The position numbers and the translations under genes were made by a program. From positions 136,761-200,760 of IMG/VR virus record IMGVR_UViG_3300030419_006251: 64,000 nucleotides of DNA. The stretch is one strand, 5' to 3'. A model generated the notes under the pieces. That model was not told where the DNA came from. It did not search any database and worked only from the letters and a program-made list of their open reading frames with translations. This DNA comes from a virus (Duplodnaviria; Caudoviricetes). How positions within the stretch are numbered: position 1 is the first letter of the stretch; every line of letters begins with the position of its first letter. Of this stretch, positions 3,962-50,664 are shown one piece after another.

Positions 3962-4954
3962 CTATATGCCTCTTTGAAATAAATCTTTTAAATCCGCTTC
4001 ATACATCATAGCAGCTAACTCTTTGAAATTAACTTTTGGCTGCCATCCTAAAACTTCCTTCGCTTTAGTAGGATCTCCTAATAGAAGCGGAACTTCGTGT
4101 GGTCTAAATAGTCGCTCATCTATTTTAACATGTTTCTCTATGCTTAAGCCGGCCTCTTCAAACACTGTCTCTAGAAATTCTCTAACAGTATGTGTTTCAC
4201 CCGTTGCGATTACAAAATCATCAGGGGTTTCCTGTTGCAACATGAGCCACATGGCTTCAACATAATCGCCGGCGAAACCCCAGTCTCTTTTTGCATCTAG
4301 GTTTCCTAAATATAGTGTATCTTCTAAACCAAGCTTAATTCTTGCAGCTGCTCTTGTAATCTTGCGTGTAACAAATGTTTCTCCTCTTCGTGGAGATTCG
4401 TGATTAAACAAAATTCCATTTGCTCCAAAAATATTGTAACTTTCTCGATAATTCCGCACAATATTGTAAGCAAAGACTTTAGAACAAGCATATGGTGATG
4501 CCGGCATTAACCTAGTATCTTCATCTTGTGGATGAGCTGGATTGTCTCCATACATCTCAGAGGACGATGCCTGATAAAACTTTGCCCATGGGCAAACATT
4601 TCTTACAGCTTCTAATAACCTGAGTGTTCCCATAGCAACATAATTTGCTGTTTCTTCTGGAGTGTCAAAAGAGACTCGTACATGCGACTGTGCCGCTAAA
4701 TTGTATACCTCGTCTGGTTTATATTTTGCCAATATTCTATGCAAACATCCAGAATCGTTCACATTGCCGTATACTAAATCAAAATTTTCTATTTTGTCCG
4801 AGCTTTCAAATATATGATCGATCCGGTCTGTCGAAATTAGAGAAGTTCTTCTCTTCATCCCAATAACTCGATATCCTTTATCTATTAAAAAGTCTGCCAA
4901 ATAAGAGCCGTCCTGTCCTGTAACTCCCGTAATTAATGCTTTTTTTTGTGTCAT
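3962..4954 (-). CDS. gmd: GDP-mannose 4,6-dehydratase
   Basis: [72 protein letters not shown]. Confidence 0.97.
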
Positions 4955-5877
4955 TTTGTTCCTCTAATGTTTGGATAATTTGTTAAAAACCAATCACATG
5001 AATTTTTAAGTGCTGTTTCGAAGTTTGTATACATGTTTTTACGCCATCCTAACTGTAATAAGCTTTGATTGGTTGATGGCTTTCGAAACTGTCCTGACGG
5101 CTTAGATGTGTCCCATATAATTGAATTATGGTACTCAAGATTGTGCGCTATCATCTGAGCTATAGTGCCGATTGAATATTCTCCCGTGTCTCCCACATTG
5201 ATTGGGGCGCGGCCATCGTAATGTTCTAATAGAAATAATAAAATATTTGCTAAATCGACCGAATATGTAAATTCTCTCAGAGGAGTGCCATCACCCCATA
5301 ATACAACATTCTCATTCTTTTGTTTAGCATTATACATTTTATGTATTAAGGCAGGAATTACATGCGAGTCGTTTAAATCGTAATTGTCGTTTTCTCCGAA
5401 TAAATTATTCGGTACCGCAGTAATAAAATTACAACCATATTGATCGCGATAGGCCTGCGATTGTATATCCAACATACGCTTTGCGTGCGCATACGCATAA
5501 TTTGACTTGTGCGGAGATCCACTATGAATTTGTTCTTCGGTTAAAGGATACATAACATTGTCTGGGTATATACATGTGCTCAAAAGTGACAGAACTTTTT
5601 CTGCTTTATGTTTATGTGCACTATCAAGCACATTTGTATTAATCCTAATATTATCAGAATAAAAATCTCCTAGATTCTCCATATTTGCTTTGATGCCACC
5701 GACTTTTGCTGCCAAATGAATCACTTGTTCTGGCTGATGTGTCCTAAACATTTCTTCGGCTTGTCGACGATCTCGTAAATCATAATCTGTAGAAGCTACA
5801 AAGGTTGCTTCTGGGATCAAGCGCTTAAGAGCGTGACCGACCATACCCGAACCTCCAGTTACAAGAATTCTTTTCAT
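4951..5877 (-). CDS. fcl: GDP-L-fucose synthase (epimerase/reductase)
   Basis: [63 protein letters not shown]; follows gmd. Confidence 0.95.
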
Positions 5878-6870
5878 TTATTCACTCGCATATTCCATAA
5901 TAGTTGGGTAGTAGTATTTATCGAAATAAACATCAGGTTTGTGATTTTCATTATAATCCTTATATGCTCTTTCTCCATAATCTTTATATCTTTCGTTCTC
6001 TAACATATACACAATTTTATCTTCTAAATCTTGAAAATCATCTTGTATAACACAATAGTCTGTAAATGGCATATGCTCTTCCGATACCGACTTATTTCTC
6101 ATCTTTGGCATTATTATTCCAGCTTTGCAACTAGCTAATTGCCAAATTCTCCATGCATCGTATGAATTCCCAAAATAGTGTAGTCCTATTTTACATCGAT
6201 TTGCAGAATATTTAAAGGCATCCGACTGTAAGCCTCCGTGCGGATTCCAATCCTCAAAATTTAAAGCCCAATTTAAATGCTTTAGATTTCCTTCGGATAA
6301 TTTTAAAACATGCTCATTAAACGGGCGACGACGAATATTGGTCATATTTGCCATAAAAAATATATCTATTGGACGGCCGTCTTTTTCTGCTTCAGGGTCT
6401 CTTAGTGAGTCAATAACAAAATGGAAAGGTTCTATTGGCGTATGTGGCCACATATTTACAGTCTGATCCGTTAATTCTCGCTGCATAATTAAGTCTGGTT
6501 TTCTATTACTCCAAATTTGCACATGTTCATGGTCTGTGGTATCGTGCTGAATTAGAAAGGCGTCTTGAAAATAGTTGTTAATTAAGTGATTTGTGATTGG
6601 TATCGTATCGTTTTCGTGCAAATATAATACTACATTCTTATATGTGTGTTCTGGGCCATGTTTTAATATATTGTCTGCGAATGGTCTTAGGGTTTTTTCA
6701 TCTATGATATCAATCGTGTGACCCTTTTTGGCAAATGATTCAAACAAGAAAGTAGAATTTTTGACAAACGAATAATTAAAAAATAAAAAATCTTTATGCA
6801 TATTTTCTCCATAATAAAGCATAATCTGTACACACTCCGTACAGATTAGGATAAGTTTCAGTTGGGGCAT
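5878..6870 (-). CDS. Glycosyltransferase-like protein (CgeB/GT-B C-terminal type); likely start at 6801
   Basis: KIGLHYFGNSYDAWRIWQLASCK..IIMP...DLEDKIVYML C-terminal pattern; located in the glycan cluster. Confidence 0.5.
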   Translation of the reverse strand: MPQLKLILICTECVQIMLYYGENMHKDFLFFNYSFVKNSTFLFESFAKKGHTIDIIDEKTLRPFADNILKHGPEHTYKNVVLYLHENDTIPITNHLINNYFQDAFLIQHDTTDHEHVQIWSNRKPDLIMQRELTDQTVNMWPHTPIEPFHFVIDSLRDPEAEKDGRPIDIFFMANMTNIRRRPFNEHVLKLSEGNLKHLNWALNFEDWNPHGGLQSDAFKYSANRCKIGLHYFGNSYDAWRIWQLASCKAGIIMPKMRNKSVSEEHMPFTDYCVIQDDFQDLEDKIVYMLENERYKDYGERAYKDYNENHKPDVYFDKYYYPTIMEYASE

Positions 6871-7222
6871 TTAAATGAACTGTTATTCCATTTTGAATAT
6901 AGTTTTCCGGATAACACCAAATATGACCTTTGCTTGTCTGTGTCATAACATCACTTTCATGCCAAAACCAATTAAAGTTAGTTTTTTGTAGCTGTTCTAC
7001 AGCTTCAATGTTTTTACAGTGCAACCACATTCGCGGATCAAAAAAGTTTTGACTAACTTCATATGTTGGTAAATCGTGACCTAAAAACCATTTTTCGCTG
7101 GTAAACCACACATCTACCTCTACATCGAACCCCAAAGCTATAGCTGTTAACAAATATTCTGGCCTGTTCTCTTTGCTCGGATCAGCGCCACTTATGTTTC
7201 CTCGGTGTGATATTATATGCAC
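6794..7222 (-). CDS. Phosphodiesterase-like (GDPD/PI-PLC fold) protein
   Basis: IISHRGN...EN...GFDVEVDVW...LGHD...WLHCKN...GVCTDY. Confidence 0.75.
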   Translation of the reverse strand: MHIISHRGNISGADPSKENRPEYLLTAIALGFDVEVDVWFTSEKWFLGHDLPTYEVSQNFFDPRMWLHCKNIEAVEQLQKTNFNWFWHESDVMTQTSKGHIWCYPENYIQNGITVHLNAPTETYPNLYGVCTDYALLWRKYA

Positions 7223-7223
7223 C

Positions 7224-7949
7224 CTATCTCCTGTGTCTCCAGTTATTTAAAAATTTTGTAAGATCTTCTGGCGTTCCCAGGCCCCACATTTCAGATACAT
7301 AAAATGGGATCAATGACTTACCATCTTGGATTAGTTCGTTATAAACTGGAGCAATATAAAATTCATTATTGACTCGTATATCTTTCTCAATCATTTGTTT
7401 CGCATATTTAACAAAATCTGAGCCTTTACGATACCAATAAATTCCACAAGTCGCAATATTTGAAATTGGTCGCTTTTCTGCTACCTCTGTAATAAATCCA
7501 CGAGAATTTGTTTTTACAAAAGACCATTTTGGATGTACAGCATTGAAAGTAAACACAATCCCATCAACACTTGTAAGGCTCTTAAGTGTATCAAAATTAT
7601 CTGGCTCATATTGAATAAACTGATCCGAATTTGCAATTAAAAGACTTTCATCGTTGTCAATATATTTTTCAGCTAAAAGCGCTGTGCAGGCGGCCCCTTC
7701 GGTTAATCCATTAACTGTTACATAATTGAAACGACCATTTGTAATTCTATCCAGCGTATCTAAAAGTCCAGAGTATTTCTGTACATGCTCTTCTCTAACA
7801 AGAAAAATATAATCACAATCAAAATCTAAATTTTCTACAACGGATTGTATCATAGGCTTGCCAGCAACATCAATTAATGGCTTTGGAAAAGTATATCCCT
7901 CTTTTGCAAACCTGCTGCCTTCACCGGCCATTGGAATCAAGATCTTCAT
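7224..7949 (-). CDS. Sugar nucleotidyltransferase (NTP_transferase family)
   Basis: ILIPMAGEGSRF...PKPLIDV; TEGAACT; IANSDQ; EVAEKRPIS; NNEFYIAPVYN; GLGTPEDL. Confidence 0.9.
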   Translation of the reverse strand: MKILIPMAGEGSRFAKEGYTFPKPLIDVAGKPMIQSVVENLDFDCDYIFLVREEHVQKYSGLLDTLDRITNGRFNYVTVNGLTEGAACTALLAEKYIDNDESLLIANSDQFIQYEPDNFDTLKSLTSVDGIVFTFNAVHPKWSFVKTNSRGFITEVAEKRPISNIATCGIYWYRKGSDFVKYAKQMIEKDIRVNNEFYIAPVYNELIQDGKSLIPFYVSEMWGLGTPEDLTKFLNNWRHRR

Positions 7950-8556
7950 TTAAATACTCCTTAAATAATTTTATACATACATCATCAGGATTTTTGACCT
8001 GTATGATATTACAGCCAGAGGCAAGTGCCGCGGCCATTCCTTTGGGCGAATCCTCTACAATCAGCATAGAAGACTTGTCTATTTGAAAATGTTCCAAAAC
8101 TTTAAGATACCCTTCTGGATGTGGTTTTGGATTTTTCACATCTTGGTTAGTGATCACCAATTCAAACAAGTCAAAAATGCCGGTTTTTTGCAGCATTAAA
8201 TCAGCAGTCATTCTGATACTGTTAGTATAGCATGCCACATGTAATTGTCTATCTTTTAGCCAATTAATTAAATCTACTTTTTCTTGTCGTAATTCGGCAT
8301 TTTCAGAAATAATTTTAACTGTCTTCTCTTGCTTCAAATCATATACTCGCTCATGTTGTTCTTTGTTTAATATTCCCATTTCTGTTAGTTTGTTTAATTT
8401 TACTTTTGTAGGAATTCCATTAAAAGTTTTATAATGATCTTCGAGAGATATCTCATAATTGCATATTTCTTTTAACGATTCGTTCAAAGCAACTCGATGC
8501 CATTCACATGCGTCGACAAGCACCCCATCTAAATCGAATGTAACTAACCTAATCAC
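7921..8556 (-). CDS. HAD-family phosphatase
   Basis: FDLDGVLVD, KNPKPHPEGY, IVEDS..G motifs. Confidence 0.9.
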   Translation of the reverse strand: MIRLVTFDLDGVLVDACEWHRVALNESLKEICNYEISLEDHYKTFNGIPTKVKLNKLTEMGILNKEQHERVYDLKQEKTVKIISENAELRQEKVDLINWLKDRQLHVACYTNSIRMTADLMLQKTGIFDLFELVITNQDVKNPKPHPEGYLKVLEHFQIDKSSMLIVEDSPKGMAAALASGCNIIQVKNPDDVCIKLFKEYLNEDLDSNGR

Positions 8557-8908
8557 CTTTCATAATCCTGTGGCTGTCGCTGTCAAAGTGTTGTGTAGAA
8601 AATTCAAAAAGCTCTGTATCTTCTAATGCTATCATTTGATGTCGAAGGCCACGATATACATGAAAGTTGTCGCCGCGCTCCAATATTAGCTCTTCTGCTT
8701 CTGCTATGTCATCTTTCTCAGAATATTTTACCAGCATTTTTCCAGATTGTATATAAAAAACCTCGTCTTTTAACTTATGATAATGCCAAGAGCAGCGCTT
8801 TCCCTTTACAAAATAAAGAAGTTTGCCACAGTATTCGTCATTATTAACAATCCATTTTTCAAAGCCCCAACCTTTAGGGACAAAATTCATTTCTAAAGAA
8901 GTCTTCAT
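8549..8908 (-). CDS. Cupin (mannose-6-phosphate/D-lyxose isomerase-like)
   Basis: VPKGWGFEKW, CSWHYHKLKDEVFYIQSG, LRHQM, FEFST. Confidence 0.8.
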   Translation of the reverse strand: MKTSLEMNFVPKGWGFEKWIVNNDEYCGKLLYFVKGKRCSWHYHKLKDEVFYIQSGKMLVKYSEKDDIAEAEELILERGDNFHVYRGLRHQMIALEDTELFEFSTQHFDSDSHRIMKGD

Positions 8909-9215
8909 CTCTTATTCCTCTGTCATCGACATAAATATCGCCGGCAGGTTTTCCCAAAAAGAGCATATGGTGTTTTACGCCCCATTCTTTTAGCTGCGCA
9001 GCTGTTTTATCATATAAATCTTTAATGGCCTTTTCGGCATCATTGTTGTGTCTTCCCATTCCGCGGGCAGTCTGCATTATAATTGTGTTGCCCTGTTCAT
9101 ATAAAGCGTTAACAACCTTTACTCTTTCGACTATAGGCATTGCTTTTTCGTATTCACCATAAGTGTTTGTACATATAGTTCCATCGATATCAAAAACATA
9201 TGTCATTTTATCCAC
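8874..9215 (-). CDS. Small HAD phosphatase (capsule-biosynthesis type)
   Basis: FDIDGTIC, TARGMG, LFLGKPAGDIYVDDRG. Confidence 0.85.
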   Translation of the reverse strand: MDKMTYVFDIDGTICTNTYGEYEKAMPIVERVKVVNALYEQGNTIIMQTARGMGRHNNDAEKAIKDLYDKTAAQLKEWGVKHHMLFLGKPAGDIYVDDRGIRDEDFFRNEFCP

Positions 9216-9871
9216 CTTTCAAAGTCTTTCATAAAGCCCTCTACAGATTCATCAGTTTTAACATGCGAGGTAGCCTTTTTAATAACAGAATACCCTGCTG
9301 TTACTATGTGGCATCCTTGGTTCCAACAATTAGATAAATCATATGCATTGCGTATAGAGCCTGCGATGATTTCGCAATCTAATTTGTTATCATCGATAAA
9401 CTTACGAGTTCTTCGAAGTACTTCGAGCGGATCTCCACCAACATCTATTAGTCGGTTATAAAATAGTGAAACATATCGAGCCCCGGAAAGGGCTGCTAGT
9501 TGCAATTGTGTATCGCTAAAACAACAAGTACAATTAACTCGGATTCCTTGTTTTTTAAGTTGATCTATTACTCTTAATTCTTCAAAGCCTACAGGAATCT
9601 TAATATTCAAGTTCTTATAATCTATTCTTTCGCATATTTCAACAGCTTGTAATATCATGGAATCCGGCTCAGTAGCAAATACTTCAACCGAGACCGGGAT
9701 GTCTACGCCGTACTGTACACACAAATCACAAATTTTTTGTATGTGGTCATAAAAGTCTGTTTTTGGTTCTTTAGCCAAAAGGGAAGGATTAGTAGTTATC
9801 CCTTGTATGACTCCCTTTTGTAATAAGCTTTCTATTTCTTTCAAATTAGCAGTATCTGCAAATAATTTCAT
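9203..9871 (-). CDS. tal: Transaldolase / fructose-6-phosphate aldolase family
   Basis: LFADTAN, GITTNPSLL, IKIP (Schiff-base Lys), VNCTCCFS, YVSLFYNR, IAGSIRN. Confidence 0.9.
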   Translation of the reverse strand: MKLFADTANLKEIESLLQKGVIQGITTNPSLLAKEPKTDFYDHIQKICDLCVQYGVDIPVSVEVFATEPDSMILQAVEICERIDYKNLNIKIPVGFEELRVIDQLKKQGIRVNCTCCFSDTQLQLAALSGARYVSLFYNRLIDVGGDPLEVLRRTRKFIDDNKLDCEIIAGSIRNAYDLSNCWNQGCHIVTAGYSVIKKATSHVKTDESVEGFMKDFERWIK

Positions 9872-9872
9872 T

Positions 9873-10361
9873 TTATTCCTCGATGTGTTTATAGGTTTTG
9901 CCGTCTTCTACGATATGTGAGTCTCCATCGTCGTCCAGTGTTGAAAACTCAATAATTACGGTATCTTCTAATGCGATTCTCATATGCATAAATCCAACAG
10001 GTATATGAAAGACATCTCCTTCATTTAAGATAAGCGAGGTGTTCTTGGCGCGACCTATCCTTGTTCCCACTTTAAGTTTTCCAGACTCTATGTAATATGA
10101 TTCTTCTTTTTTTATATGATATTCCATACTACTTTGAGTGCCCTTCTTCATAAAAATTCTTTTAACTGTATAGTGTTCATTTTCGAAAAGAGTCTTCATA
10201 TTTCCCCAATATTTATCGACCTCTTTTATAACTCCATGAATTGGAGGCAATTCTTGTCTTCCATATTTTATATCATTGGCCATAATATTTTTCTTTTCCA
10301 TTCTTGCGAAAAAAGTGTTTATCAATAACATATTTTGGTATACGCATACTGCTTGCTCCAA
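9873..10361 (-). CDS. Second cupin (sugar isomerase/epimerase-like); likely start at 10283
   Basis: DKYWG, SSMEYHIKKEESYYIESG, HMRIALEDTVIIEFST; same family as 8549..8908. Confidence 0.75.
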   Translation of the reverse strand: MEQAVCVYQNMLLINTFFARMEKKNIMANDIKYGRQELPPIHGVIKEVDKYWGNMKTLFENEHYTVKRIFMKKGTQSSMEYHIKKEESYYIESGKLKVGTRIGRAKNTSLILNEGDVFHIPVGFMHMRIALEDTVIIEFSTLDDDGDSHIVEDGKTYKHIEE

Positions 10362-10956
10362 TTAAAGTTAAACTCTTGTACGCCATCTCCGCAACCAACT
10401 CTAAAACATAGGCCGTTTCTAATGTTTGTTCTATCGATGGCCCCCAAATAAAAGCGCCGTGGCCGGAAACCAACGAACAAGGCATTCTTTTGTAGTCAAT
10501 GCCAGATGATTTAAAATATTTACAAATTTCTACACCTGTTTCAAGTTCATAATTGGTTTCTATCTGTCGTCTGTTCGGGTGTGGAACACAGGGTATATCT
10601 CCATAAAAATAATCTGCGTGTGTTGTTCCCAAGCAGGGTATTTGCCTATTAGCTTGTGCAAATGTAGTGCTGTATTTGGAATGTGTATGTACTATGCAAT
10701 TAATATTATTGAAATTCTTATAGATCTCCAAATGTGTAGGTGTATCGACGGATGGTTTTTTGCCATCAATTTTTTGACCGTATATTGTCAAAACAGATAT
10801 ATCCTCTTCTGTCGCAGCATCTAAATCAACTCCAGATGGTTTTATATAGATTATATCTCCTTGCCTGTAACTCACATTTCCCCAAGTTAACTCTACCAAG
10901 TCTTTTTCGACAATCCACCTATTGGCCTTTAAAACTTCTTTCTTAATTGAGCGCAT
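10273..10956 (-). CDS. araD: L-ribulose-5-phosphate 4-epimerase (class II aldolase family)
   Basis: TWGNVS, IKPSGVD, KPSVDTPTH, VHTHS, GTTHADYFYGDIPC, LVSGHG, AYVLELVAEMA. Confidence 0.92.
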   Translation of the reverse strand: MRSIKKEVLKANRWIVEKDLVELTWGNVSYRQGDIIYIKPSGVDLDAATEEDISVLTIYGQKIDGKKPSVDTPTHLEIYKNFNNINCIVHTHSKYSTTFAQANRQIPCLGTTHADYFYGDIPCVPHPNRRQIETNYELETGVEICKYFKSSGIDYKRMPCSLVSGHGAFIWGPSIEQTLETAYVLELVAEMAYKSLTLIGASSMRIPKYVIDKHFFRKNGKEKYYGQ

Positions 10957-11875
10957 AGAAATCCTCGTATGTAGGAGGCTTAGTGCCCATATTCAATGTT
11001 GATGCAGCTGCCCATTTGTTGCAGAATTCAAGATCAAAATCGGGATATTTTACAGCAAATGCTGCGAGGAACGAGTCGCCGGCGCCGCAAGAATCTTTCG
11101 CTTCTATTGGATATCCGCCATGATGAATTACTCTGTTGCCATCATATAAAACGCTGCCGCGAGATCCTAAAGTAACACAGATTCCCGCTCTTAAATTTTC
11201 CGAAAGTTCTTTCAATTGATTTAATACTGGTTTAAATGAATTTGATGGACAATACAAAGATTTAAGATTATTAGTTGCCTCAGTTTCGTTCATACAAATA
11301 AGATTCGAGCCGGCGAAATGAAAATATTGATTTTTTCCGTCTGATATTTGCGAACTAGCGATGACTTTTATATCCCTCTCTTTCAAAAGTGATATTAATT
11401 CTTGAGTTTGTTTGGCATTATTGAAGAACCCCTTTCTGTAATCTACTAGTAGTGCTGTTTCAAAACTTTCATTGTTTATTTTGTCTTTTATTTGCTGGAT
11501 GTGCTCATTAGTCAACGAAACCTGTTGACCTCTATTAACTTGTAAAAATTTATACTTATTATCACCCTTACTTATCCAATATCTTGATTTAACGGTATTT
11601 TTACCACTGTGTTCTATCAAATATAAATCAAGATTTTCCGATTTCCAAGAATTGAGAACATCTTTGTGTGCATCTTGCCCATTAGCTGTAATAAAAGTGA
11701 CCTTTGCTGATAGAGATAACAAGTTACTAACCACATTGGCCGCTCCTCCAAAAGTGTATTCTTCTTCTACGAACTCGGTTTTCATAGTCGGAGTTTCTAG
11801 CGATATACCTATTGGGTTGCAAAAAATAGAATGATCTATGATTGTATCGCCTATAACCAATATATTATCTTTCAT
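10943..11875 (-). CDS. PfkB-family sugar kinase, HldE/RfaE kinase-domain-like (stand-alone)
   Basis: LVIGDTIID, GGAANVVSNL, VDYRKG, VTLGSRGS, DSCGAGDSF. Confidence 0.88.
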   Translation of the reverse strand: MKDNILVIGDTIIDHSIFCNPIGISLETPTMKTEFVEEEYTFGGAANVVSNLLSLSAKVTFITANGQDAHKDVLNSWKSENLDLYLIEHSGKNTVKSRYWISKGDNKYKFLQVNRGQQVSLTNEHIQQIKDKINNESFETALLVDYRKGFFNNAKQTQELISLLKERDIKVIASSQISDGKNQYFHFAGSNLICMNETEATNNLKSLYCPSNSFKPVLNQLKELSENLRAGICVTLGSRGSVLYDGNRVIHHGGYPIEAKDSCGAGDSFLAAFAVKYPDFDLEFCNKWAAASTLNMGTKPPTYEDFYALN

Positions 11876-12731
11876 GCTTATCCCAATGTTGCTTTTCGTG
11901 AATTTTCTTTATTACACTTGTGGTGGAATAATTTTCCAAAAATGGATAAATTTTGATATCAATATGTCGTGGGATTCCATCTCTGGCCCTGACTTCTTCG
12001 GAAGTCCACTCTCCACCTTTGACAACAATAGATGGATCAATCGCCTCAATAATACCAATACTCTTTGTATTATCAAATATAACCACCTCATCGACACAAT
12101 GCAAGGATTCTAGTATTTTTTTTCTGTCATTTTGATTATTAATCGGCCGATCTGGCCCTTTAAGTTGCCGAACACTATTATCAGAATTGATTCCTACCAC
12201 CAATTTATCTCCGAGAGATTTAGAAAAATTCAGTAATTCAATATGACCTGTGTGTAGGATATCGAAGACCCCGTTTGTAAAGACCACTCTTTTCTTCTTA
12301 GAAGATAGTTTTTCGACTCTCTTAACATGGCGACCTTCTCCAAACTTAGTTTGCAGCCACAAATCTAAAATTTTAAAGTTTTCTTCTTCAGAGGTAGTCC
12401 AGTGTCCTAAACATAATATATTTGAATCATTGTGTTCTCTGCATTTAGGGGCCGTAGTAACATTATGCACCAATGCTGCTCTGACTTTTTCAAATCGGTT
12501 TGCCGCTATGCTCATTCCGACTCCGGTGCCACATATCAATATACCACTCTGTATATCGTCGTTAGTCAACATTTGACTTAACTGGTTCGCATAGTCTACA
12601 TAATCTACTTTTCTTGCCTCGTCAAATGGTCCAATATCTACAGCAATAAAATTGTTTTCTTTGAGATATTTTCGTATTTTATTTTTTAATGCTATTCCGT
12701 TATGATCGGAGGAAAGTCCTATTATTTTCAT
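11865..12731 (-). CDS. rpiB: Fusion of an RpiB/LacAB sugar-phosphate isomerase and an HldE/RfaE-type nucleotidyltransferase
   Basis: N-term SDHNG...DYVDY...ICGTGVGMSIAANR...EHNDSNILCLG...GRHVKRV; C-term FTNGVFDILHTGH...VGINSDNSV..LKGPDRPIN...VKGGEW...YSTT. Confidence 0.9.
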   Translation of the reverse strand: MKIIGLSSDHNGIALKNKIRKYLKENNFIAVDIGPFDEARKVDYVDYANQLSQMLTNDDIQSGILICGTGVGMSIAANRFEKVRAALVHNVTTAPKCREHNDSNILCLGHWTTSEEENFKILDLWLQTKFGEGRHVKRVEKLSSKKKRVVFTNGVFDILHTGHIELLNFSKSLGDKLVVGINSDNSVRQLKGPDRPINNQNDRKKILESLHCVDEVVIFDNTKSIGIIEAIDPSIVVKGGEWTSEEVRARDGIPRHIDIKIYPFLENYSTTSVIKKIHEKQHWDKHER

Positions 12732-12741
12732 ATCGCTCTCT

Positions 12742-13422
12742 TTAGGATTTTGTATATTTTACTATATTCCATTTATCTGAAAATTTAAACGATGTCGGCT
12801 TGATTGTGTGAAAAAATAATTTATCTGTTTTATGTGTCATGCCATCAATAAGGTTGATAACACTACTATCAATACAATGTATTTCTGATGCATTTTGGAT
12901 AATTTTTACATAATCGAGCAAGTTCTCCGTCAATCCGGGGCGAATTTCTATTACTGGTAATTTTGATTTTATATCCACAAAAAACTTTCCTATGCTGGAC
13001 TGTTGGTGTAATAAAACATAATCCTTTTTGGTGTGCACTAAAGTCTCGTATAGTTTATCAGAATTTGGTATGTGGCTCGGCAGTTTAAAGTTTGAATATC
13101 TGATGGAAAAATCTAGGTTTAATTGTTCATAAAAGCATATATTACATTCTAATTCGCAAGTATCTAAATATTCAAATCCAACTCTAAGTACCGGTAGCTT
13201 CTTAGTATTACAGTAGTCTATAACATCCCTGTGTTCTACGGCCACAGGAAACACTGTTATATTATCCCAATCTTGATATAGGCACTGTACAGTATTAAAG
13301 TTGTGAAGCTTGGCTGGTAAATGAATTTTATCGTATGTTGTTGCAACTTGATGTACTAAGCCGTTGCATACGAAATGATCGCCCAAACCTAAGTGGTGAT
13401 GTAGAACAACTTCTTTATTCAT
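12742..13422 (-). CDS. Glycan-associated hypothetical (glycosyltransferase-like)
   Basis: HHHLGLGDHFVCNGLV N-terminus; IHCIDSS; cluster context. Confidence 0.5.
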   Translation of the reverse strand: MNKEVVLHHHLGLGDHFVCNGLVHQVATTYDKIHLPAKLHNFNTVQCLYQDWDNITVFPVAVEHRDVIDYCNTKKLPVLRVGFEYLDTCELECNICFYEQLNLDFSIRYSNFKLPSHIPNSDKLYETLVHTKKDYVLLHQQSSIGKFFVDIKSKLPVIEIRPGLTENLLDYVKIIQNASEIHCIDSSVINLIDGMTHKTDKLFFHTIKPTSFKFSDKWNIVKYTKS

Positions 13423-14308
13423 CTTTAAGCCAATTTTCTAATTTAATTTTTGGCGTCCAGTTGAGCAAATTCTGCGCTTTTGTATTATCAGCCAATGAAA
13501 TTTCAGCTTCCGCTGGGCGAGGCGGAATGAAAGTATATTCTCCTCCGACAAGTTTTGCTAGCTCAACAATGCTGTGATTTTCTCCCGTTCCTATGTTTAT
13601 AAGTTGGCCAATTGGCTTCTTATTTTCTAAATCTGCTGCTAATATATTAGCGGCGACTACATCAAGCACATTGGTAAAGTCTCTTCGCTGCCTTCCTGAG
13701 CCTATTATAGTCATCGGCAGACCCGCACCCTTCTGTCTTAGAAAGAGACCTACTACGGGTGCATATTGTCCTCTTACGGGCTGCCTTTTTCCATATACAT
13801 TAAAATATCTGAAGACAACGGTTTCAAGCCCATATAAATCCATATACATTTTACACAAATCTTCGCCGGCACATTTCGAAATTGAATAAGGATTTAAACA
13901 ATCTCGCGGCATATCCTCGTGGAGTGGAGGAATGTTTTTAAGTCCATAAGCAGCAGAAGTAGAGGAATAAACTACCCGTTTAACACCAGCTTCGCGTGAT
14001 GCTTGAAGTATGTTGCATGTGCCGACAGTGTTTACGGTTGTTGCATAAATAGGATTGTGAATAGCTGGCTGGATTCTTGACTCAGCTGCTAGATGAAAAA
14101 CAACATCGATATCTGTAAATAAGTGTCGTATTGCATCATATTCGCAGATATCATATTTATAGTTTTTTGCATTCTCGTTCCAGTAAAATTGTTCATGTGC
14201 ATCGGAAGACTCATTATCAATAACTATTACCTCATGTTCTAAATTGATCAATTCGTCAACTAAATTGCTTCCAATAAATCCAGCGCCGCCCGTAACTAAA
14301 CATCTCAT
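13415..14308 (-). CDS. NAD-dependent nucleotide-sugar epimerase/dehydratase (extended SDR)
   Basis: VTGGAGFIGSNL, FHLAA, YSSTSAAYG, PYSISK, FRYFNVYG, RDFTNV. Confidence 0.92.
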   Translation of the reverse strand: MRCLVTGGAGFIGSNLVDELINLEHEVIVIDNESSDAHEQFYWNENAKNYKYDICEYDAIRHLFTDIDVVFHLAAESRIQPAIHNPIYATTVNTVGTCNILQASREAGVKRVVYSSTSAAYGLKNIPPLHEDMPRDCLNPYSISKCAGEDLCKMYMDLYGLETVVFRYFNVYGKRQPVRGQYAPVVGLFLRQKGAGLPMTIIGSGRQRRDFTNVLDVVAANILAADLENKKPIGQLINIGTGENHSIVELAKLVGGEYTFIPPRPAEAEISLADNTKAQNLLNWTPKIKLENWLKDE

Positions 14309-15264
14309 TTTGCGTTCCCTTCAATAAACACATCATTAAATTTTTTCATAACATTCTCTGGCGTGTATTTATCTACTAATACACTGTACTTTCCACCATG
14401 CGTTTCTCGTCTGACATTTACCAGATGTGTATATAACTCTTCTGGTTCGTTATACCATAGACCTTCTTCGCCAAGCATCTTAAGGTGATTTTGATCGCCC
14501 CCTCCTGGCCAAGCAATTACTGGCTTATCGTGATACAAAAACTCTCCTATTGCTAAACCAAAACTTTCTCCCATGGCCCGGGCATGAATCATCGCATCGC
14601 ACATTCCAATAAAATTTGATTTTTCTTGTAAATCGTAAATCGGATCTAAATGAATAATATTGGGCAAAGGCATACAAAATCGATCTGTATTTAAAAATAC
14701 AAAATATAAAAATCTATTATTTAAAGCTGCTCGTTCAATAATCGAACCAATGGGCAAATTAAATTGATCTCTTCCGCCGTGTCGGCCAATAACAACTGCG
14801 TGTTCTGGAATATTCAATTGTGCGCGCATATCTGCATTTGGTTGTGGCATATTGATCATGTGAGGTACATACGGAGAATTACCAGAGGTCATCTTATCTG
14901 ACAACCACTCCGACACATACGCATATATATCGCCGTGCGGCTCATAGTTTTGGAAAACTGCATGGACACCTGTTTTACACGCATCTGTTATTTTTCCATC
15001 TTTTTCTCCGCCTTTGATCATATAAAGTAAATCCGCCTGCTCTGCTTTAATAATTGCATCAACTTCGGACCAGTCATCGTATCCAAAAATCTCAAAATGT
15101 TTTTTGTACTTTTCAATCCCTAAAGGATGATTGGCGGTAGAACCCTTCCAGTGTAAAACAATAGATTCATTTCCTAATATTTTTCTATTAAAATATGCAT
15201 AATCAAACATGGCTACAGAGGCGCCTCGCAAGCATATTTCATTTGAGTGAAAGGCAATTTTCAT
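14305..15264 (-). CDS. GT-B (GT4-like) glycosyltransferase
   Basis: LRGASVAMFDYA; DAMIHARAMGESFGLAIGEF...KPVI. Confidence 0.8.
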   Translation of the reverse strand: MKIAFHSNEICLRGASVAMFDYAYFNRKILGNESIVLHWKGSTANHPLGIEKYKKHFEIFGYDDWSEVDAIIKAEQADLLYMIKGGEKDGKITDACKTGVHAVFQNYEPHGDIYAYVSEWLSDKMTSGNSPYVPHMINMPQPNADMRAQLNIPEHAVVIGRHGGRDQFNLPIGSIIERAALNNRFLYFVFLNTDRFCMPLPNIIHLDPIYDLQEKSNFIGMCDAMIHARAMGESFGLAIGEFLYHDKPVIAWPGGGDQNHLKMLGEEGLWYNEPEELYTHLVNVRRETHGGKYSVLVDKYTPENVMKKFNDVFIEGNAK

Positions 15265-15938
15265 TTTAATATCTCACTGTTATAAAGGCCGCATTGCGAA
15301 CCTTGTCTTGTAATTGGTGGCTCCCACCAATATACTTTCATATCCGCCTCCTTCATATGATAATTGATCTCGAAATCAATTGGAAGCGTAAATGGTTTTG
15401 TATTCTTGTTTATTATAGCAGCTGCTTCATAGTTTATTAAATACGAATCTACACATTTGCTAGCCGGATGTTCTTTGCGATATGCCACAACTCCGTCTTT
15501 CACCTTTCTTTTAGGAATTCTTAAATTACAACCATTGCCTATAAAAATCAAATCCCAATCTTTTGGAGTCGATAGCAAATTAAAATTAAACACTTCAACA
15601 AATCTATCACTAAATAACAAATCATCTTCTAAAATAAGGGCGGTAGATATTTTATTATTTACAATATCTTCCCAGATTTTAATATGTTTATATGCAATTG
15701 ATTTTTCAGATTTAGTAAGTTCTTTCCAAGGTATTGGGCCGCCATAATCTAAACTAAAAATTTTTTTATACCACAAATCACAATTACTATCATAGATCTC
15801 ACCTAACTGCTTCTCAGTTGGCTCACACTCAATCCATGTTACATCAATATTAAACTCTTGAAGTGTTTTGAGTAATTTTTCTTTTCTTTCTCGCAGCGGA
15901 GTATAATGAGCTACATAAATCTTATCAACCATCAACAT
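15261..15938 (-). CDS. GT25-like glycosyltransferase
   Basis: IYVAHY...R; KHIKIWEDI; ALILEDD; CVDSYLI; PIDFEI. Confidence 0.8.
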   Translation of the reverse strand: MLMVDKIYVAHYTPLRERKEKLLKTLQEFNIDVTWIECEPTEKQLGEIYDSNCDLWYKKIFSLDYGGPIPWKELTKSEKSIAYKHIKIWEDIVNNKISTALILEDDLLFSDRFVEVFNFNLLSTPKDWDLIFIGNGCNLRIPKRKVKDGVVAYRKEHPASKCVDSYLINYEAAAIINKNTKPFTLPIDFEINYHMKEADMKVYWWEPPITRQGSQCGLYNSEILK

Positions 15939-16813
15939 ATTATATTCTCCTCAAAAAACTTAAGCACTGATTCGGGCTTAACCGAGTCTGGAATTTTTCC
16001 TGATGGGAAAACCGGGGCTGTGATGTATTGTTCATATAAACTATCGTCTGATTCAATTTCCTCAATTAAATCGACTACTTCAACCAAATCATTAAATTTA
16101 TGTACATCAATAAATGCGTCTTTGTTGAAGTCCAAATGAGCAATCGGAGATCCCCAATAGATAGGAATACTACCAATCGACAATGGGTGCAACAACTTTT
16201 CTGTTGTATATCCCGGATGCGATGAATTTTCTGCCGCAATTGTAAACCGGTAATTTGAAATAAAATCTACTTTGGGCTTCTGATCTCCTCGACCCGGAAT
16301 TCGTTGACCCATATTGTTTAAAAGACTGCCGGCAGAGTCAACTCGCTCGTACATTGAAATTTCATTTAACAGTGGTACTCGAATTCCCGTATGGTTGGAA
16401 AAAATAAAATTACAAAACTTTGGTTTCTTCCTTATTTTTCGAGGGCCAATTAAATTATTTAAAGGAGTTAAATAAGAAACATCTCGCTCTTCTGAGTGGG
16501 GTACATTGAACCAATTAATCCACAGCACCCAGAGAGGTAGGCGATAGTTTTTTGGGTTGTCCGAAAAATCAAATGAAAATGCAAATTCGCATTCATCGAA
16601 ATTGGGCCTTTTATTCTCGCCAGTATAATAAACCTTTCGCGTCGTGCTGTGCGCTTTGTGCGAAGTTCCGAAATCTGCATAAAAAAGAATATCTGGAGTT
16701 TCGCTTATCTCCACATCGTACTTGGTCGAAAGAAGATGATAAAAATAATTGTCCGTTGCAACAAAGTTTGGCCAAAAGTCAGCAAAGTTAATTTTTAACT
16801 TCATATATCCCAC
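15932..16813 (-). CDS. GT10-family alpha-1,3/1,4-fucosyltransferase
   Basis: YTGEN, SFDF, YRLPLW, KFCNFIFSN, YRFTIAAENS..GYTTEKL...GSIPIYWG. Confidence 0.9.
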   Translation of the reverse strand: MGYMKLKINFADFWPNFVATDNYFYHLLSTKYDVEISETPDILFYADFGTSHKAHSTTRKVYYTGENKRPNFDECEFAFSFDFSDNPKNYRLPLWVLWINWFNVPHSEERDVSYLTPLNNLIGPRKIRKKPKFCNFIFSNHTGIRVPLLNEISMYERVDSAGSLLNNMGQRIPGRGDQKPKVDFISNYRFTIAAENSSHPGYTTEKLLHPLSIGSIPIYWGSPIAHLDFNKDAFIDVHKFNDLVEVVDLIEEIESDDSLYEQYITAPVFPSGKIPDSVKPESVLKFFEENIIC

Positions 16814-17463
16814 ACCCTGCTGTCGACATCATTTTCGTCAAATACTTGTCCTATAAAGTTAACAGGATATCCACCCTCGTCCAAACCTCCTTCTCGTTTT
16901 ACGGGAAAAGGTTTCTTTTCAAAATAATCATCATGTACGCAAGATTCTTCGCGGACGATTGGGTATATTACATTTCTCAAAAAATCTTGATCAATCTGCC
17001 ATCTGTCTTCTTTCGGAAATCTACTAATCAAACGCGACATGTTAGATAAAAGACTATTTCTTACGCCCCACATTCCGCCCATGATTGGTGCTGCGTGACA
17101 TGGGTGATCTCTCATAATATGAAAATCCTTATCTCCAGCCAACCAATCATCAACTGCTGCTTTCTCTCTTTGTGTTAGACGACTATCTGTGTCCCGCGAG
17201 ATCATGACATCGACATTAGGATCTGATGCCGCATAAAACCTCCAAAACATTCCGTTCCAATCGCCGGGATCCTGCATGATGTATAATTCAGTATTATTCA
17301 TCATGAATAAGTTGTTGATGATTCCCATGGGAACACATTTGGCAATATAAAATCGACATACCCAATCAGGATAAATTTCTTTTGCCAGTTGTGCATTTTT
17401 TATTGCACCAACAGTATATCTCGGATTCGAACCCCACAAACAAAAACTAATGACCTTTTTCAT
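16801..17463 (-). CDS. Conserved glycan-associated hypothetical (GT-A-like)
   Basis: ISFCLWG...Y.VGAIKN; MFWRF; ISRDTDSRL; HIMRDHP.H...IMGGMWG; DQDFL. Confidence 0.6.
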   Translation of the reverse strand: MKKVISFCLWGSNPRYTVGAIKNAQLAKEIYPDWVCRFYIAKCVPMGIINNLFMMNNTELYIMQDPGDWNGMFWRFYAASDPNVDVMISRDTDSRLTQREKAAVDDWLAGDKDFHIMRDHPCHAAPIMGGMWGVRNSLLSNMSRLISRFPKEDRWQIDQDFLRNVIYPIVREESCVHDDYFEKKPFPVKREGGLDEGGYPVNFIGQVFDENDVDSRVWDI

Positions 17464-18257
17464 AAACTCTCCACAATTCTTTTTGTTGTTTCAAACGAGC
17501 CTAGTCTAGAACAATTACGCTCGTACCATTGCCTGCCGTAGTAAGACAGGTATTGCCATTGCGCCTCAGAGCAGCCTTTGACCGCCTGCTGAACCTCTTG
17601 TGGCGTCTCAGCCCTTAAATAGTGCTTTCCCTCTATTAGAGGGTCGTGATAGGCCGTACAGACGCCTTCTGTAATTACCGGGACAACTCCAAGGCCCAAA
17701 TATTCAATTTCTCTATTACATTTGGGCCCGTACCCCGGAAGGCACAACCCAAATTTTGTACTAGCAACTTTTTCTAAATATTCGTCTTGTGTAAATGGCC
17801 AATTAAAGCTATCACCCATCGCAATGGGCATGTTGAACAGCTCTATGGCTTCAAACCAGTTGTGAGCAGTTCTGTTTGCCAACTGAACTCTATTTTCGAC
17901 TTTTCCGAGGAATATAGATTCAATTTCTCGCTCTGCATATGTTTTAATTCCATTGTGAATCTTTTCCTCTAATTTTCGAGGATGTCTGGCCCAATAAATC
18001 CAAGGATGAGCGTTTGGCCATCGGTGCTGCATACCGGCAAATAGGCCGCTCTTCCAGTGGCCAGGAAGATTCGGGTAAACATCATAACGATCATACTCAT
18101 AAAGCAAAATATCTCCAGGTTCGTTAGCCCAAAGAAATACATCACCAGCATCGTCATCTATTATTTCGCAATAACCAGATTCTTGCCACATATCTAATAG
18201 TTCTCTTGATGTGTCACCTTTGTGTTCTGGAGTTTGTACGCCTCTGTGGATTTTCAT
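17460..18257 (-). CDS. Glycosyltransferase-like (exostosin/GT47-like C-terminus)
   Basis: YLEKVASTKFGLCLPGYGPKCNREIEYLGLGVVPV. Confidence 0.55.
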   Translation of the reverse strand: MKIHRGVQTPEHKGDTSRELLDMWQESGYCEIIDDDAGDVFLWANEPGDILLYEYDRYDVYPNLPGHWKSGLFAGMQHRWPNAHPWIYWARHPRKLEEKIHNGIKTYAEREIESIFLGKVENRVQLANRTAHNWFEAIELFNMPIAMGDSFNWPFTQDEYLEKVASTKFGLCLPGYGPKCNREIEYLGLGVVPVITEGVCTAYHDPLIEGKHYLRAETPQEVQQAVKGCSEAQWQYLSYYGRQWYERNCSRLGSFETTKRIVESL

Positions 18258-19120
18258 GCTGCTCCGTAGAAGTTTTTAAGCTCGTTATTCTCAAACAGCT
18301 TGTTTCTTATTTCGGGAAACCGGTTTAACAAGTGTTTTGTGTATTTTCCACGAGAATCAACCGGTTCCCCTGCCCAATTATCTAGATCACACTGTTTTTG
18401 AAGCAAAAATACCATTTTTTGCTCATTATTCATTTTTATCTGCGATATTTGCTCTTTTGAGGCCTCAATACACGGAAAATCTTGAGAATTCGCCTGATTA
18501 TACGCCTTATGGTCAAAAAAGTGATTTTTTGTGAATTCTGGGCTATTTGTGAATCTTTCTATCATTAAATCCTGATCTGAGCCATAATTTCCGTGTTTCA
18601 TTGCATAATATGTATAAAAACTATCAAATTTCATTATATATGGCACTTTTTGAGGTTTAAAGCTCGATAATCCTGCTAGCATGCGACATTTTATGCCATA
18701 ATGGTTCTGATGTGTTCTTAAAGTACCAATTGCGCACGAAGATTGTTCAAATGCGCTTGTATATCGATATTCTGTCTCTGTTGGGATTGAATCTATATCT
18801 CTGGTATGAAAAACTTCAATATCCCTCTCCCACAATGGCATCATACGCCAAATAGCCGGCTCGGTACCGGCATATTCTAGCTCAATTGTTTCATATGTCT
18901 GCGATAAGGCTTCAAATACCGGAAATAAGCGATGTTCCATAATATTTGGAGTAATATAGACGCGCATTTCATGGTTTGGGTATAATATTCGGTTTGTTAA
19001 CACTACTGAAGGGAGGTTAAACCAATATCTATCCCTATTAGCCCTATGTTTGTCGTGTGTTCTGTGTTGTGGTAGAATTTTTGGACTGAACAGACTGTAC
19101 GAAAGCACCTTCTTCAGCAT
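18254..19120 (-). CDS. Divergent paralog of 16801..17463
   Basis: KVLSYSLF, IWRMMPL, RDIDS, MLAGL, DQDLM match the same motif order. Confidence 0.5.
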   Translation of the reverse strand: MLKKVLSYSLFSPKILPQHRTHDKHRANRDRYWFNLPSVVLTNRILYPNHEMRVYITPNIMEHRLFPVFEALSQTYETIELEYAGTEPAIWRMMPLWERDIEVFHTRDIDSIPTETEYRYTSAFEQSSCAIGTLRTHQNHYGIKCRMLAGLSSFKPQKVPYIMKFDSFYTYYAMKHGNYGSDQDLMIERFTNSPEFTKNHFFDHKAYNQANSQDFPCIEASKEQISQIKMNNEQKMVFLLQKQCDLDNWAGEPVDSRGKYTKHLLNRFPEIRNKLFENNELKNFYGAA

Positions 19121-21140: not shown

Positions 21141-22363
21141 GAACCATGAGTATTAATAATGTGCGTCATTACCTCATCCCATTTCTTTGTATAAGAATCA
21201 AATGAATAATTCTTTAAAACATGTTTTCGACCTTTAGCTCCCATTTTTTTCCTTTCTTCGCGAGTCATGTGGTACATTTTCTTCAAGGCATTAATAAAAT
21301 CGTCCTTGCTAATTCTATCTTCATAGATATACGGTACATCCTGAGAGCCTATAATTGCCTTAGAAGAAGGCTCTATCCCTACTCCGAAATATTCCTTACC
21401 GTCTGTAACTTGTTCTTGCAATCCTCCAGTCATGTTTACAATTACTGGGGTTCCGCAACTTAAAGATTCCAATGTTGATAACCCAAATCCTTCCGCATCT
21501 GAAATATTGATCGTACAGTCCGCCACATTATAAATCATTGCCAATTCTTTCAAATCAACCTTATTGACAGAAAGTAGCACTTGACCGTCGGTAATATCTA
21601 ATTCTTCCAATATGGCCTCTAAGTCTTGCCCATGCGGATCTTTAGGTTCTGTGTGCATAATCAAAGTGGCATTATCATGTCCTACTTCGTCTAAAAATTC
21701 TTTAAACCACCAAATTAAAGTTCCGCTCTGCTTTCTTCGAGCGTTTCGATTATTCCAAAAGAAAACTACCTTTTCTTTTCCATTGACAATTAGTTTGTCA
21801 TGTTTTTCTTTATATTCTTGTACCACTTGCTCAGATAATGGGCAATATGCAGATGACGGAACAGCGTGTGGAACATGGATACACTCAACATCAGGAGATA
21901 CTGTTCTAACAATATCATCAGTAACTTTGGAAATTGTGCACACAACATCATTAGAATCATAAAATTTCTTATTAAATGTCGGATAAGGATAATTATCCCA
22001 CACATGATAGTACACCATTGGAACATGTGGACGAATTTCGTTTTCTATCATCCAAAGCCAAGTCCAAAACCTAGGATCAGTCATAAACCAGACAACATCT
22101 GGCCTCTCGTTGATTACTATAGAGCGCACCTGATCTTCAGTGCCATATCCATCGACCGGATATATGATCCAATCTTCGCCATATTCTTCAGTATATACTG
22201 GATTATGATTTTCGTGCCTGATGGCGCCGCCAAGCGAAATAACTTTGTATTTGCCAGTATCAAGCAAGCCCTCGATCATAAATCTAGTCTGTGTGCCCAC
22301 ACCCGAGGGAGAGAGTGGATGGTCTGATAGTGTTAGTATTAGTGTTTTTTTGTCTTCTGTCAT
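21092..22363 (-). CDS. GT4-like glycosyltransferase
   Basis: SDHPLSPSGVG; NNRNARRK; ISDAEGFGLSTLESLSCGTPVI. Confidence 0.88.
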   Translation of the reverse strand: MTEDKKTLILTLSDHPLSPSGVGTQTRFMIEGLLDTGKYKVISLGGAIRHENHNPVYTEEYGEDWIIYPVDGYGTEDQVRSIVINERPDVVWFMTDPRFWTWLWMIENEIRPHVPMVYYHVWDNYPYPTFNKKFYDSNDVVCTISKVTDDIVRTVSPDVECIHVPHAVPSSAYCPLSEQVVQEYKEKHDKLIVNGKEKVVFFWNNRNARRKQSGTLIWWFKEFLDEVGHDNATLIMHTEPKDPHGQDLEAILEELDITDGQVLLSVNKVDLKELAMIYNVADCTINISDAEGFGLSTLESLSCGTPVIVNMTGGLQEQVTDGKEYFGVGIEPSSKAIIGSQDVPYIYEDRISKDDFINALKKMYHMTREERKKMGAKGRKHVLKNYSFDSYTKKWDEVMTHIINTHGSWDARKNYQSWTMEEV

Positions 22364-48270: not shown

Positions 48271-48279
48271 CTAAGACAT

Positions 48280-50158: not shown

Positions 50159-50181
50159 AGAAATCTCCTTGCTATACTATA

Positions 50182-50627: not shown

Positions 50628-50664
50628 GATATGCCTCCTATGGCGATTGAGTAAAGGTTTAATA

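Follow-up and report, generated by a model that had tools for sequence, protein, structure and literature searches.

The virus record IMGVR_UViG_3300030419_006251 of IMG/VR (200,760 bp; CheckV completeness 100%) carries in its final 64 kb, here called the window, a glycan island at positions 3962–22363. Within this island lie the nine genes examined here (7224–12731). All are on the minus strand and are packed tightly, with overlaps of 8–35 nt or gaps of 1 nt between neighbours. A preliminary description of the locus had read them as a single operon making an unusual nucleotide-activated higher sugar, and Pfam and NCBIfam profile scans placed each of the domains that it named at its coordinates on the minus strand. 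Six of the nine (8874–12731) form a core block, and it is this cassette that we take to be the biosynthetic unit.

The cassette begins with a single open reading frame (ORF) of 288 residues (11865–12731) in which an RpiB domain (residues 1 to ~146) is fused to a nucleotidyltransferase (NT) domain of the HldC/HldE-II adenylyltransferase type (residues ~146–288). The preliminary description listed RpiB and two nucleotidyltransferases separately; RpiB and one of these NTs are indeed present, but in one protein. There follow a PfkB sugar-phosphate kinase resembling HldE domain I and HldA (10943–11875; PF00294, 90.5 bits); an AraD-like 4-epimerase with the class II aldolase fold (10273–10956); cupin162, a metal cupin of the phosphomannose isomerase (PMI) type (9873–10283, in an ORF that is open to 10361); a short TalC-type transaldolase (Tal; 9203–9871; PF00923, 155.7 bits); and sHAD113, a minimal HAD-IIIA phosphatase of 113 residues (8874–9215; TIGR01689, E 2e-10).

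If these six genes form a unit, are they found together elsewhere? Loci encoding the fusion protein were fetched from 185,579 species genomes and from IMG/VR, and all island proteins of the window were run by tblastn against 75 fusion-bearing loci (numbered below with the prefix L). The counts cover those 61 loci in which the sequence continues for at least 4.5 kb beyond the fusion gene. All 61 have the PfkB kinase and cupin162, 60 have the transaldolase, and AraD and the small HAD are each found in 56; all five partners occur together in 51/61, and in 40 of the 61 they stand in the same order as in the window. A reverse search from cupin162 recovers essentially the same viral contigs. In contrast, the remaining three genes, cupin119, HAD211 (at 25–28% identity) and the NTP_transferase, lie near the cassette in just 6, 3 and 2 loci, respectively. 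Conservation as a block, the check that had been suggested for the whole set, therefore holds for six genes and fails for three. The close packing of the nine stands; their being one evolutionary unit, or one nine-gene pathway, does not. The operon is composite, a six-gene core set among other modules.

More than 120 protein clusters are at least 53% identical to the fusion protein. The cellular carriers of the block include Woesearchaeota, Pacearchaeota, Parcubacteria, a Pelagibacteraceae (SAR11) genome and a Prochlorococcus single-cell genome, together with gammaproteobacterial, Longimicrobiales and Acidobacteria metagenome-assembled genomes (MAGs); its viral carriers are 57 IMG/VR contigs. 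Since the same block occurs in archaeal and bacterial genomes it is not virus-specific, and the earlier notion of a viral pathway is on this point not supported. On the Prochlorococcus contig the cassette is surrounded by genes for Wzz/BY-kinase, an initiating sugar transferase (Bac_transf), a GT2 glycosyltransferase and proteins of unknown function. This setting is a surface-polysaccharide locus.

What distinguishes the RpiB domain of the fusion from an ordinary RpiB? It is 40–45% identical to solved RpiBs, scores 157 bits with PF02502 and 138.9 bits with TIGR01120 (cut-off 138.65), and shares with the RpiB/LacAB isomerases the full set of catalytic residues (D9, H10, C67, T69, H100, N101, R134, H135 and R138). 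It differs from them at the arginine that caps the five-carbon pocket, which in the fusions is a tryptophan. We aligned the RpiB domains of 58 fusions with the Trypanosoma cruzi enzyme and with 59 stand-alone RpiBs that the same scan had yielded. Where the enzymes of Mycobacterium tuberculosis and T. cruzi have Arg113, Trp stands in 58/58 fusions, and Arg in 57/59 of the stand-alone proteins, a set selected by shared sequence patterns and hence biased. His89 is invariant in the fusions only, Asn90 is also a new invariant, and the DYP motif has become DYV or DYT. Arg113 holds the phosphate of the substrate and forms a partial cover over a tunnel sized for five carbons (PMC3755991; its role is also treated in PMC4783025), and LacAB, which is without this arginine, accepts hexose phosphates in a pocket that is 3 Å longer (PMC3755991, PMC4783025). 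We conclude from the replacement of Arg113 by Trp in all fusions that the fused RpiB is a distinct subfamily. To judge by these substitutions, it probably handles a longer or differently held substrate. Lys41 was considered as a stand-in for the lost arginine, in the manner of Arg39 of LacB, and was dropped because it is a lysine in just 25/58 fusions.

The NT domain scores 158.4 bits with TIGR02199 (cut-off 181.5). Its closest solved relative is HldC of Burkholderia pseudomallei (PDB 5x9q, E 1.4e-30), and both the HxGH and the STT motifs are present. Five residues after the STT motif stands a lysine. In a commentary on Tang et al. 2024 (PMC11461863) an arginine at that position is linked to the use of CTP or UTP; with Lys in place of Arg, an ADP-sugar is the likeliest product. 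The three HENase architectures listed there for Tang et al. 2024 (PMC11461863) comprise the NT alone, kinase–NT and isomerase/kinase–NT, and include no RpiB–NT fusion, unlike the cassette. In current annotation the fusion is mostly labelled just ‘ribose 5-phosphate isomerase B’.

The top NCBIfam match of the kinase is TIGR02198 (HldE domain I), though its score falls far short of that model's threshold (117 as against 345 bits), and we propose that it is an anomeric (O1) kinase. The AraD-like protein scores 259.5 bits with NF006047 (cut-off 257) and aligns over its full length with Escherichia coli AraD (PDB 1jdi, E 5.7e-55). It keeps the equivalents of Asp76, His95, His97, Asp120, His171 and Tyr229, which we take to be the catalytic set of the E. 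coli enzyme, the metal ligands and the Asp120/Tyr229 acid–base pair among them. AraD is absent from L007, L100–L102 and L105, and also from L006, while every other member is retained there, which argues that it performs a tailoring step and not the entry step.

The homologues of cupin162 point to a start methionine at 10283 or 10301. Its PMI signal is that of the C-terminal region of such enzymes (PF01050, 29.9 bits; TIGR01479, region 355–433), and it bears the invariant pattern YWG...QSSxExH...E...H...R of type II PMI. The predicted structure (predicted local distance difference test (pLDDT) score 89.6) matches generic cupins, namely cysteine dioxygenase, oxalate decarboxylase, D-lyxose isomerase, Thermococcus PMI and the CapF cupin, and the fold search was unable to separate isomerase from epimerase. 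We propose that cupin162 is a sugar-phosphate aldose–ketose isomerase.

The transaldolase, the sole one in the phage genome, aligns with Glu60, Lys86 and Phe132 of Thermoplasma acidophilum Tal and is just 29–35% identical to cyanophage TalC. An FSA-type aldolase was ruled out by this Glu/Lys/Phe set, which is not the Gln/Tyr of the fructose 6-phosphate (F6P) aldolases. The enzyme is proposed to move a three-carbon (dihydroxyacetone) unit onto an aldose phosphate. As for sHAD113, its relatives in the PDB are a ‘capsule biosynthesis protein’ (9iqw, E 4e-12) and 1xpj; it gives a HAD-IIIA signal (TIGR01662, E 2.6e-4) and no match to a GmhB model. Its DxD motif, Thr49, Lys89 and Asp93 are conserved across 45 homologues. 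Its proposed role is removal of the terminal phosphate, a GmhB-like step.

How does the cassette stand to the standard heptose pathway, whose isomerase, GmhA, is a SIS-domain protein? A search with PF13580 (SIS) found nothing at E ≤ 1 in the complete phage genome or in five related phage records, while the control genomes gave matches. The earlier remark that the nine genes include no recognisable GmhA is thus borne out over all 200,760 bp. A GmhA-like match is likewise absent from 6/12 cassette-bearing cellular genomes, which fits a self-sufficient cassette, although absences in MAGs may reflect incompleteness. Elsewhere the two coexist: in L021 a GmhA-like gene lies next to the cassette, and in L018 there is one 10 kb off, along with a second HldC/HldA-like pair. 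Several cassettes bear an extra stand-alone HldC-like gene. The coexistence of the cassette with GmhA-like and HldA/HldC-like genes in L018 and L021 argues that its product is a different one.

The ADP-heptose pathway (GmhA/HldE/GmhB) and the cassette have in common the logic of isomerase, O1 kinase, terminal phosphatase and adenylyltransferase. The kinases and NTs of the two are related as families (PfkB, HldC-like), though those of the cassette score below the HldE cut-offs; each has a HAD phosphatase, and both have GT9-family transferases as genomic partners. On the other hand, the cassette has, instead of the SIS-type GmhA, a cupin of the PMI type along with an RpiB domain that is modified, its NT is fused to RpiB and not to the kinase, and its phosphatase is a minimal HAD of ~110 residues and not GmhB. 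It also adds an obligatory transaldolase and, usually, the AraD-like epimerase.

Which enzyme might use the product? In 12/13 cellular genomes a GT9 gene (PF01075) is found no more than a few kb from the cassette, often as the sole GT9 of that genome. It is directly adjacent to the cassette in L005, L008, L011, L012, L014, L017, L018 and L021, and many viral contigs likewise carry a PF01075 gene nearby. Directly upstream of the cassette in the window is unk226 (12742–13422, minus strand), a protein of 226 residues with no match in Pfam or NCBIfam. Its AlphaFold model (pLDDT 95) has a compact GT-B appearance with a GT9-like fold. Foldseek returned eight matches at E ≤ 1e-3, all of them GT9 (including 3tov, TibC, WaaC and WaaF), and the ESM Atlas leads to a GT9 cluster. 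With VIA-align the Z scores were 13.3 for 3tov, 12.6 for WaaF, 12.4 for TibC and 11.9 for WaaC, tied by plant NDH-complex chains (9grx, 7wff and 7f9o) at 12.3–12.6, while the remaining named glycosyltransferase families reached at most 9.5. On the predicted fold, unk226 is a candidate transferase for the product of the cassette.

We consider it rather probable that the block 8874–12731, with unk226, constitutes a self-contained, GmhA-independent route to an ADP-activated C7 or C8 aldose unlike ordinary ADP-glycero-manno-heptose, and that this sugar is passed to a heptosyltransferase-like enzyme for glycan synthesis. The steps are drawn from protein families, residues and synteny. The transaldolase would produce a 3S,4R ketose phosphate by transferring a dihydroxyacetone unit from F6P or sedoheptulose 7-phosphate (S7P) to an aldose phosphate. 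In the loci that have it, the AraD-like enzyme would invert C4 of this ketose by retro-aldol/aldol chemistry. The ketose phosphate would then be converted to an aldose phosphate by the PMI-type cupin, by the re-tooled RpiB domain, or by both. Phosphorylation at O1 would fall to the HldA-like PfkB kinase and removal of the terminal phosphate to the small HAD, whereupon the HldC-like domain would form the ADP-sugar and a GT9-like transferase would use it.

Two variants of this scheme differ in the acceptor of the transaldolase. If the acceptor is a pentose 5-phosphate, addition of three carbons would give an octulose 8-phosphate, as with LmbR of lincomycin synthesis. We regard this as quite possible, if somewhat short of probable. 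It would employ both isomerases, one making the pentose acceptor and the other converting the octulose phosphate, and would need only universal metabolites (ribulose 5-phosphate (Ru5P) and F6P); the GDP-octose route of lincomycin synthesis is a precedent for it. If instead the acceptor is erythrose 4-phosphate (E4P), the product would be S7P and then an epimeric heptose. This second variant, to which we give slightly less credence, accords with the GT9 link and with heptoses being known to abound in glycans; it accounts neither for one of the isomerases nor for the retention of Tal in Prochlorococcus.

The lincomycin route comprises the transaldolase LmbR, the isomerase LmbN, the kinase LmbP, the phosphatase LmbK and the nucleotidyltransferase LmbO (PMC12945683, Table 1). 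It resembles the cassette in setting a transaldolase ahead of an isomerase–kinase–phosphatase–nucleotidyltransferase series, and no other precedent is known for a nucleoside diphosphate (NDP)-linked higher sugar made from a pentose phosphate and a C3 unit. It differs in the protein families that serve as isomerase and NT: LmbN is a SIS-type isomerase, and the NT is GDP-type as against the HldC-type, ADP-type NT of the cassette. The cassette, furthermore, adds an AraD-like epimerase, and it sits in glycan loci and phages and not in an antibiotic cluster.

Might the genes instead serve central metabolism? In cyanophages talC is a classic pentose-phosphate auxiliary gene. Tal, RpiB and AraD could by this precedent be auxiliary genes that boost the pentose-phosphate pathway of the host for nucleotide supply and are merely parked in a glycan island; phages often carry such genes, and this genome is without another transaldolase. 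However, the Tal of the window shows only the low identity to cyanophage TalC given above, RpiB shares one polypeptide with a sugar nucleotidyltransferase in more than 120 protein clusters, and the canonical pathway has no step for AraD. The same genes occur in the same order in archaeal and bacterial glycan loci, a synteny by which the auxiliary role is largely refuted, and we hold it to be highly improbable. The preliminary description had likewise preferred an NDP-higher sugar to this role, and its preference is upheld by the glycan-locus setting, by the GT9 link and by a Tal distinct from talC that is the only one in the genome. A second alternative would keep the genes in sugar activation with a smaller product. 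In one of its two routes a canonical AraD would turn xylulose 5-phosphate (Xu5P) into L-Ru5P, and isomerisation, phosphorylation at O1, loss of the 5-phosphate and nucleotidylation would then give an NDP-L-pentofuranose; in the other, F6P would pass through tagatose 6-phosphate to a galacto- or talo-hexose 6-phosphate and an ADP-hexose. Neither requires a transaldolase, yet Tal is all but universal among the loci. AraD, moreover, cannot be the entry step where five loci and L006 lack it and keep all else, the NT and kinase are nearest to those of heptose synthesis, and the transferases that accompany the cassette belong to GT9. Such a product is distinctly unlikely, even though the known catalytic residues do not set this AraD apart from the canonical enzyme, the small HAD family TIGR01689 is named after Pasteurella capsule loci, and the RpiB/LacAB family turns tagatose 6-phosphate into galactose 6-phosphate (PMC3755991).

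The alternative that deserves most attention is that the cassette makes ordinary ADP-D,D- or L,D-manno-heptose, with the cupin in place of GmhA and with Tal, RpiB and AraD only supplying S7P out of the pentose and hexose phosphates of central metabolism. Conversion of S7P to the 7-phosphate of D-glycero-D-manno-heptose has the same C2 stereochemistry as that of F6P to mannose 6-phosphate, which a PMI-type cupin fits, and the smaller module of phages S-CAM1 and S-SM2 (NT, kinase, small HAD and cupin119, with no SIS) looks exactly so. GT9 neighbours ordinarily use ADP-manno-heptose, and genomes of DPANN and of the candidate phyla radiation (CPR) may be without a supply of S7P. Against this, Tal alone requires E4P, RpiB and AraD yield no S7P without transketolase and Rpe, L-Ru5P is not an intermediate of such a supply, and Prochlorococcus and SAR11 keep Tal and RpiB though they make S7P anyway. 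The GmhA-like and extra HldA/HldC-like genes accompanying the cassette in L018 and L021 would be redundant, and the Arg-to-Trp change in RpiB speaks against a housekeeping role. We therefore judge the standard pathway unlikely, while giving it more weight than the other two alternatives.

Several observations weigh against our preferred route to a C7 or C8 ADP-sugar by way of a re-tooled RpiB. The RpiB domain clears the rpiB equivalog cut-off, by 0.25 bits, and the fusion is the sole Rpi detected in 2/5 DPANN/CPR MAGs, which fits an ordinary ribose 5-phosphate isomerase. The AraD-like enzyme, in which all catalytic and phosphate-pocket residues are kept, may just interconvert Xu5P and L-Ru5P. 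PF01075 has no match at E ≤ 10 in this phage genome, and unk226 is devoid of a GT9 signal at the sequence level: it is missed by PF01075, and its comparison by hhalign with the syntenic GT9 ORFs of L089, L132 and L012 was not significant (probability 3.6%). Which acceptor the transaldolase uses, and with it the number of carbons in the product, is a guess. Two isomerases are one beyond the need of the heptose variant; as for the octose variant, plain octoses are not known from bacterial glycans. The bias in the stand-alone RpiB set and the possible incompleteness of the MAGs count on the same side.

A broader proposal, which we advance tentatively and with less assurance than the route itself, is that the product is a new nucleotide sugar, an ADP-octose or a 4-epimerised heptose or octose of the talo or galacto type, built from a pentose or tetrose phosphate and a C3 unit; that the RpiB with Trp for Arg and the cupin represent a new class of higher-sugar-phosphate isomerase; and that the sugar is a widespread, overlooked surface-glycan unit of SAR11, Prochlorococcus, DPANN and CPR with which their phages would reshape the glycans of host or virion. 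The literature searched yielded no account of the cassette. If the product is a new ADP-sugar, the cassette would define a new sugar-nucleotide pathway with two non-orthologous replacements of GmhA and two steps that edit the carbon skeleton. Such a pathway would be present in marine microbes that are among the most abundant, in their phages and in minimal DPANN/CPR genomes, and would help explain the large glycan islands of marine T4-like phages and the structures decorating the cells that phages recognise. The innate-immune kinase ALPK1 has ADP-heptose and its NDP relatives as ligands (PMC11461863), which makes new analogues interesting as probes.

What, then, of the three genes at 7224–8908? 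They belong to other modules and not to the core cassette. Cupin119 (8549–8908, minus strand; PF07883) is a paralogue of cupin162. It has 65–72% nucleotide identity to S-SM2, S-CAM1, Bellamy and others, and 68% and 66% amino-acid identity to proteins of S-SM2 and S-CAM1, respectively, that are labelled ‘cysteine dioxygenase’. It is a hallmark of the smaller cyanomyovirus module, the ‘lipopolysaccharide/heptose’ set T4-GC 304–308 (S-SM2, S-CAM1, S-SSM7, S-T4, S-CAM3). This set is like the cassette in possessing a homologous stand-alone HldC-like NT, PfkB, small HAD and cupin and in having no SIS; it differs in being without the RpiB fusion, the transaldolase and cupin162. In S-SM2 a transketolase-like gene (L001 21096–22304) and a distant class II aldolase (14304–14978) stand in place of transaldolase and AraD, a swap that suggests a family of phage pathways editing sugar carbon skeletons before nucleotide activation.

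HAD211 (7921–8556, minus strand), a hydrolase or mutase of the HAD-IA beta-phosphoglucomutase family (PF13419, 102.9 bits; TIGR02009, 100 bits), forms an independent module with NTPtr241 (7224–7949, minus strand), a sugar-1-phosphate nucleotidylyltransferase of the RmlA/ManC fold (PF00483, 40.9 bits; PDB 4evw, E 1.8e-20), and with unk142 (6794–7222, minus strand), a conserved viral protein that has no Pfam match and leads in the Atlas to clusters of viral hypothetical proteins only. In Synechococcus phages B3 and DSL-LC03 HAD211 is joined N-terminally to the NTP_transferase in one protein of ~460 residues, with an unk142 homologue adjoining and no cassette. NTPtr241 is 55–57% identical to the C-terminal half of these fusions, and unk142 is 37–42% identical to the NT-adjoining genes of S-SM2 (SSM2_208), B3 and DSL-LC03; S-SM2 thus holds homologues of both. 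The fusions are a Rosetta-stone link for an uncharacterised sugar-activation module. In the records they carry the label ‘glucose-1-phosphate thymidylyltransferase’ (L198 6971–8344, B3 gp358; L199 6901–8286, DSL-LC03), although each is a fusion of HAD-IA and NTP_transferase.

Other cyanophage labels also call for correction. RefSeq proteins of ~105–110 residues named ‘phosphoheptose isomerase’ are 39–51% identical to the small HAD of the window and are not SIS proteins (L001 12337–12666 and 13996–14307, SSM2_210 and SSM2_207 of S-SM2; L002 12305–12628, SXBG_00218 of S-CAM1), and the neighbouring ‘cysteine dioxygenase’ genes encode a sugar cupin. The mislabelling is probably systematic across cyanophage records; the names should read small HAD phosphatase and sugar cupin.

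The phage itself encodes a T4-type gp23 capsid protein, and its genome has no match to psbA. Its closest PhoH match is only 39% identical and no close cultured relative was found. On these grounds we call it an uncultured marine T4-like myovirus, the label of a typical cyanophage being ruled out. A 116-kb contig binned as Candidatus Pelagibacter sp. TMED166 (L012; NHHP01000006.1) matches the gene order of the phage at 39–73% identity, the common order being PhoH–unk117–metallopeptidase–PD-(D/E)XK–GT4–GT4/GT2–cassette–cupin119. It has the look of a myovirus contig that the binning placed in a SAR11 MAG; alternatively, it may point to the host.

From ~25.9 kb down to 0.2 kb of the window all genes of at least 100 residues are on the minus strand and the GC content is low (about 0.36). 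The glycan island holds, in addition to the nine genes, a GT4, a GT4+GT2 protein, three unknown genes, a GT10 fucosyltransferase, a GT25, a GT1-like protein and a short-chain dehydrogenase/reductase (SDR), and further two unknown genes, a GDP-fucose-synthase-like SDR and a GDP-mannose 4,6-dehydratase, all on the minus strand. SDR297 (13415–14308) was considered as an HldD and rejected, for its NCBIfam matches are generic (GalE 150, LegB 145 and HldD 109 bits, all below cut-off). A GDP-fucose branch is encoded at 3962–5877 and 15932–16813. It comprises the GDP-mannose 4,6-dehydratase (TIGR01472, 482 bits, above the cut-off of 415), the GDP-L-fucose-synthase-like SDR (259 bits, below cut-off) and the GT10, an alpha-1,3-fucosyltransferase with a FucT_N domain; Gmd and Fcl-like genes border the cassette in many viral loci too.

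Beyond the island, a protein of 242 residues (23484–24212) gives a weak match to PF07737, the anthrax lethal factor N/C domain (29.3 bits), and also to peptidase M90. It is zinc-metallopeptidase-like and lies beside PhoH and a PD-(D/E)XK nuclease, an arrangement conserved in related phage contigs. A minus-strand ORF of 2273 residues downstream of the island (37665–44486) probably encodes a large virion or fibre protein. The GC content rises to 0.50–0.56 at 48001–56000, as against about 0.36 in the glycan island, and this region holds an HNH endonuclease (48914–50158) and an AAA ATPase (50918–51985).

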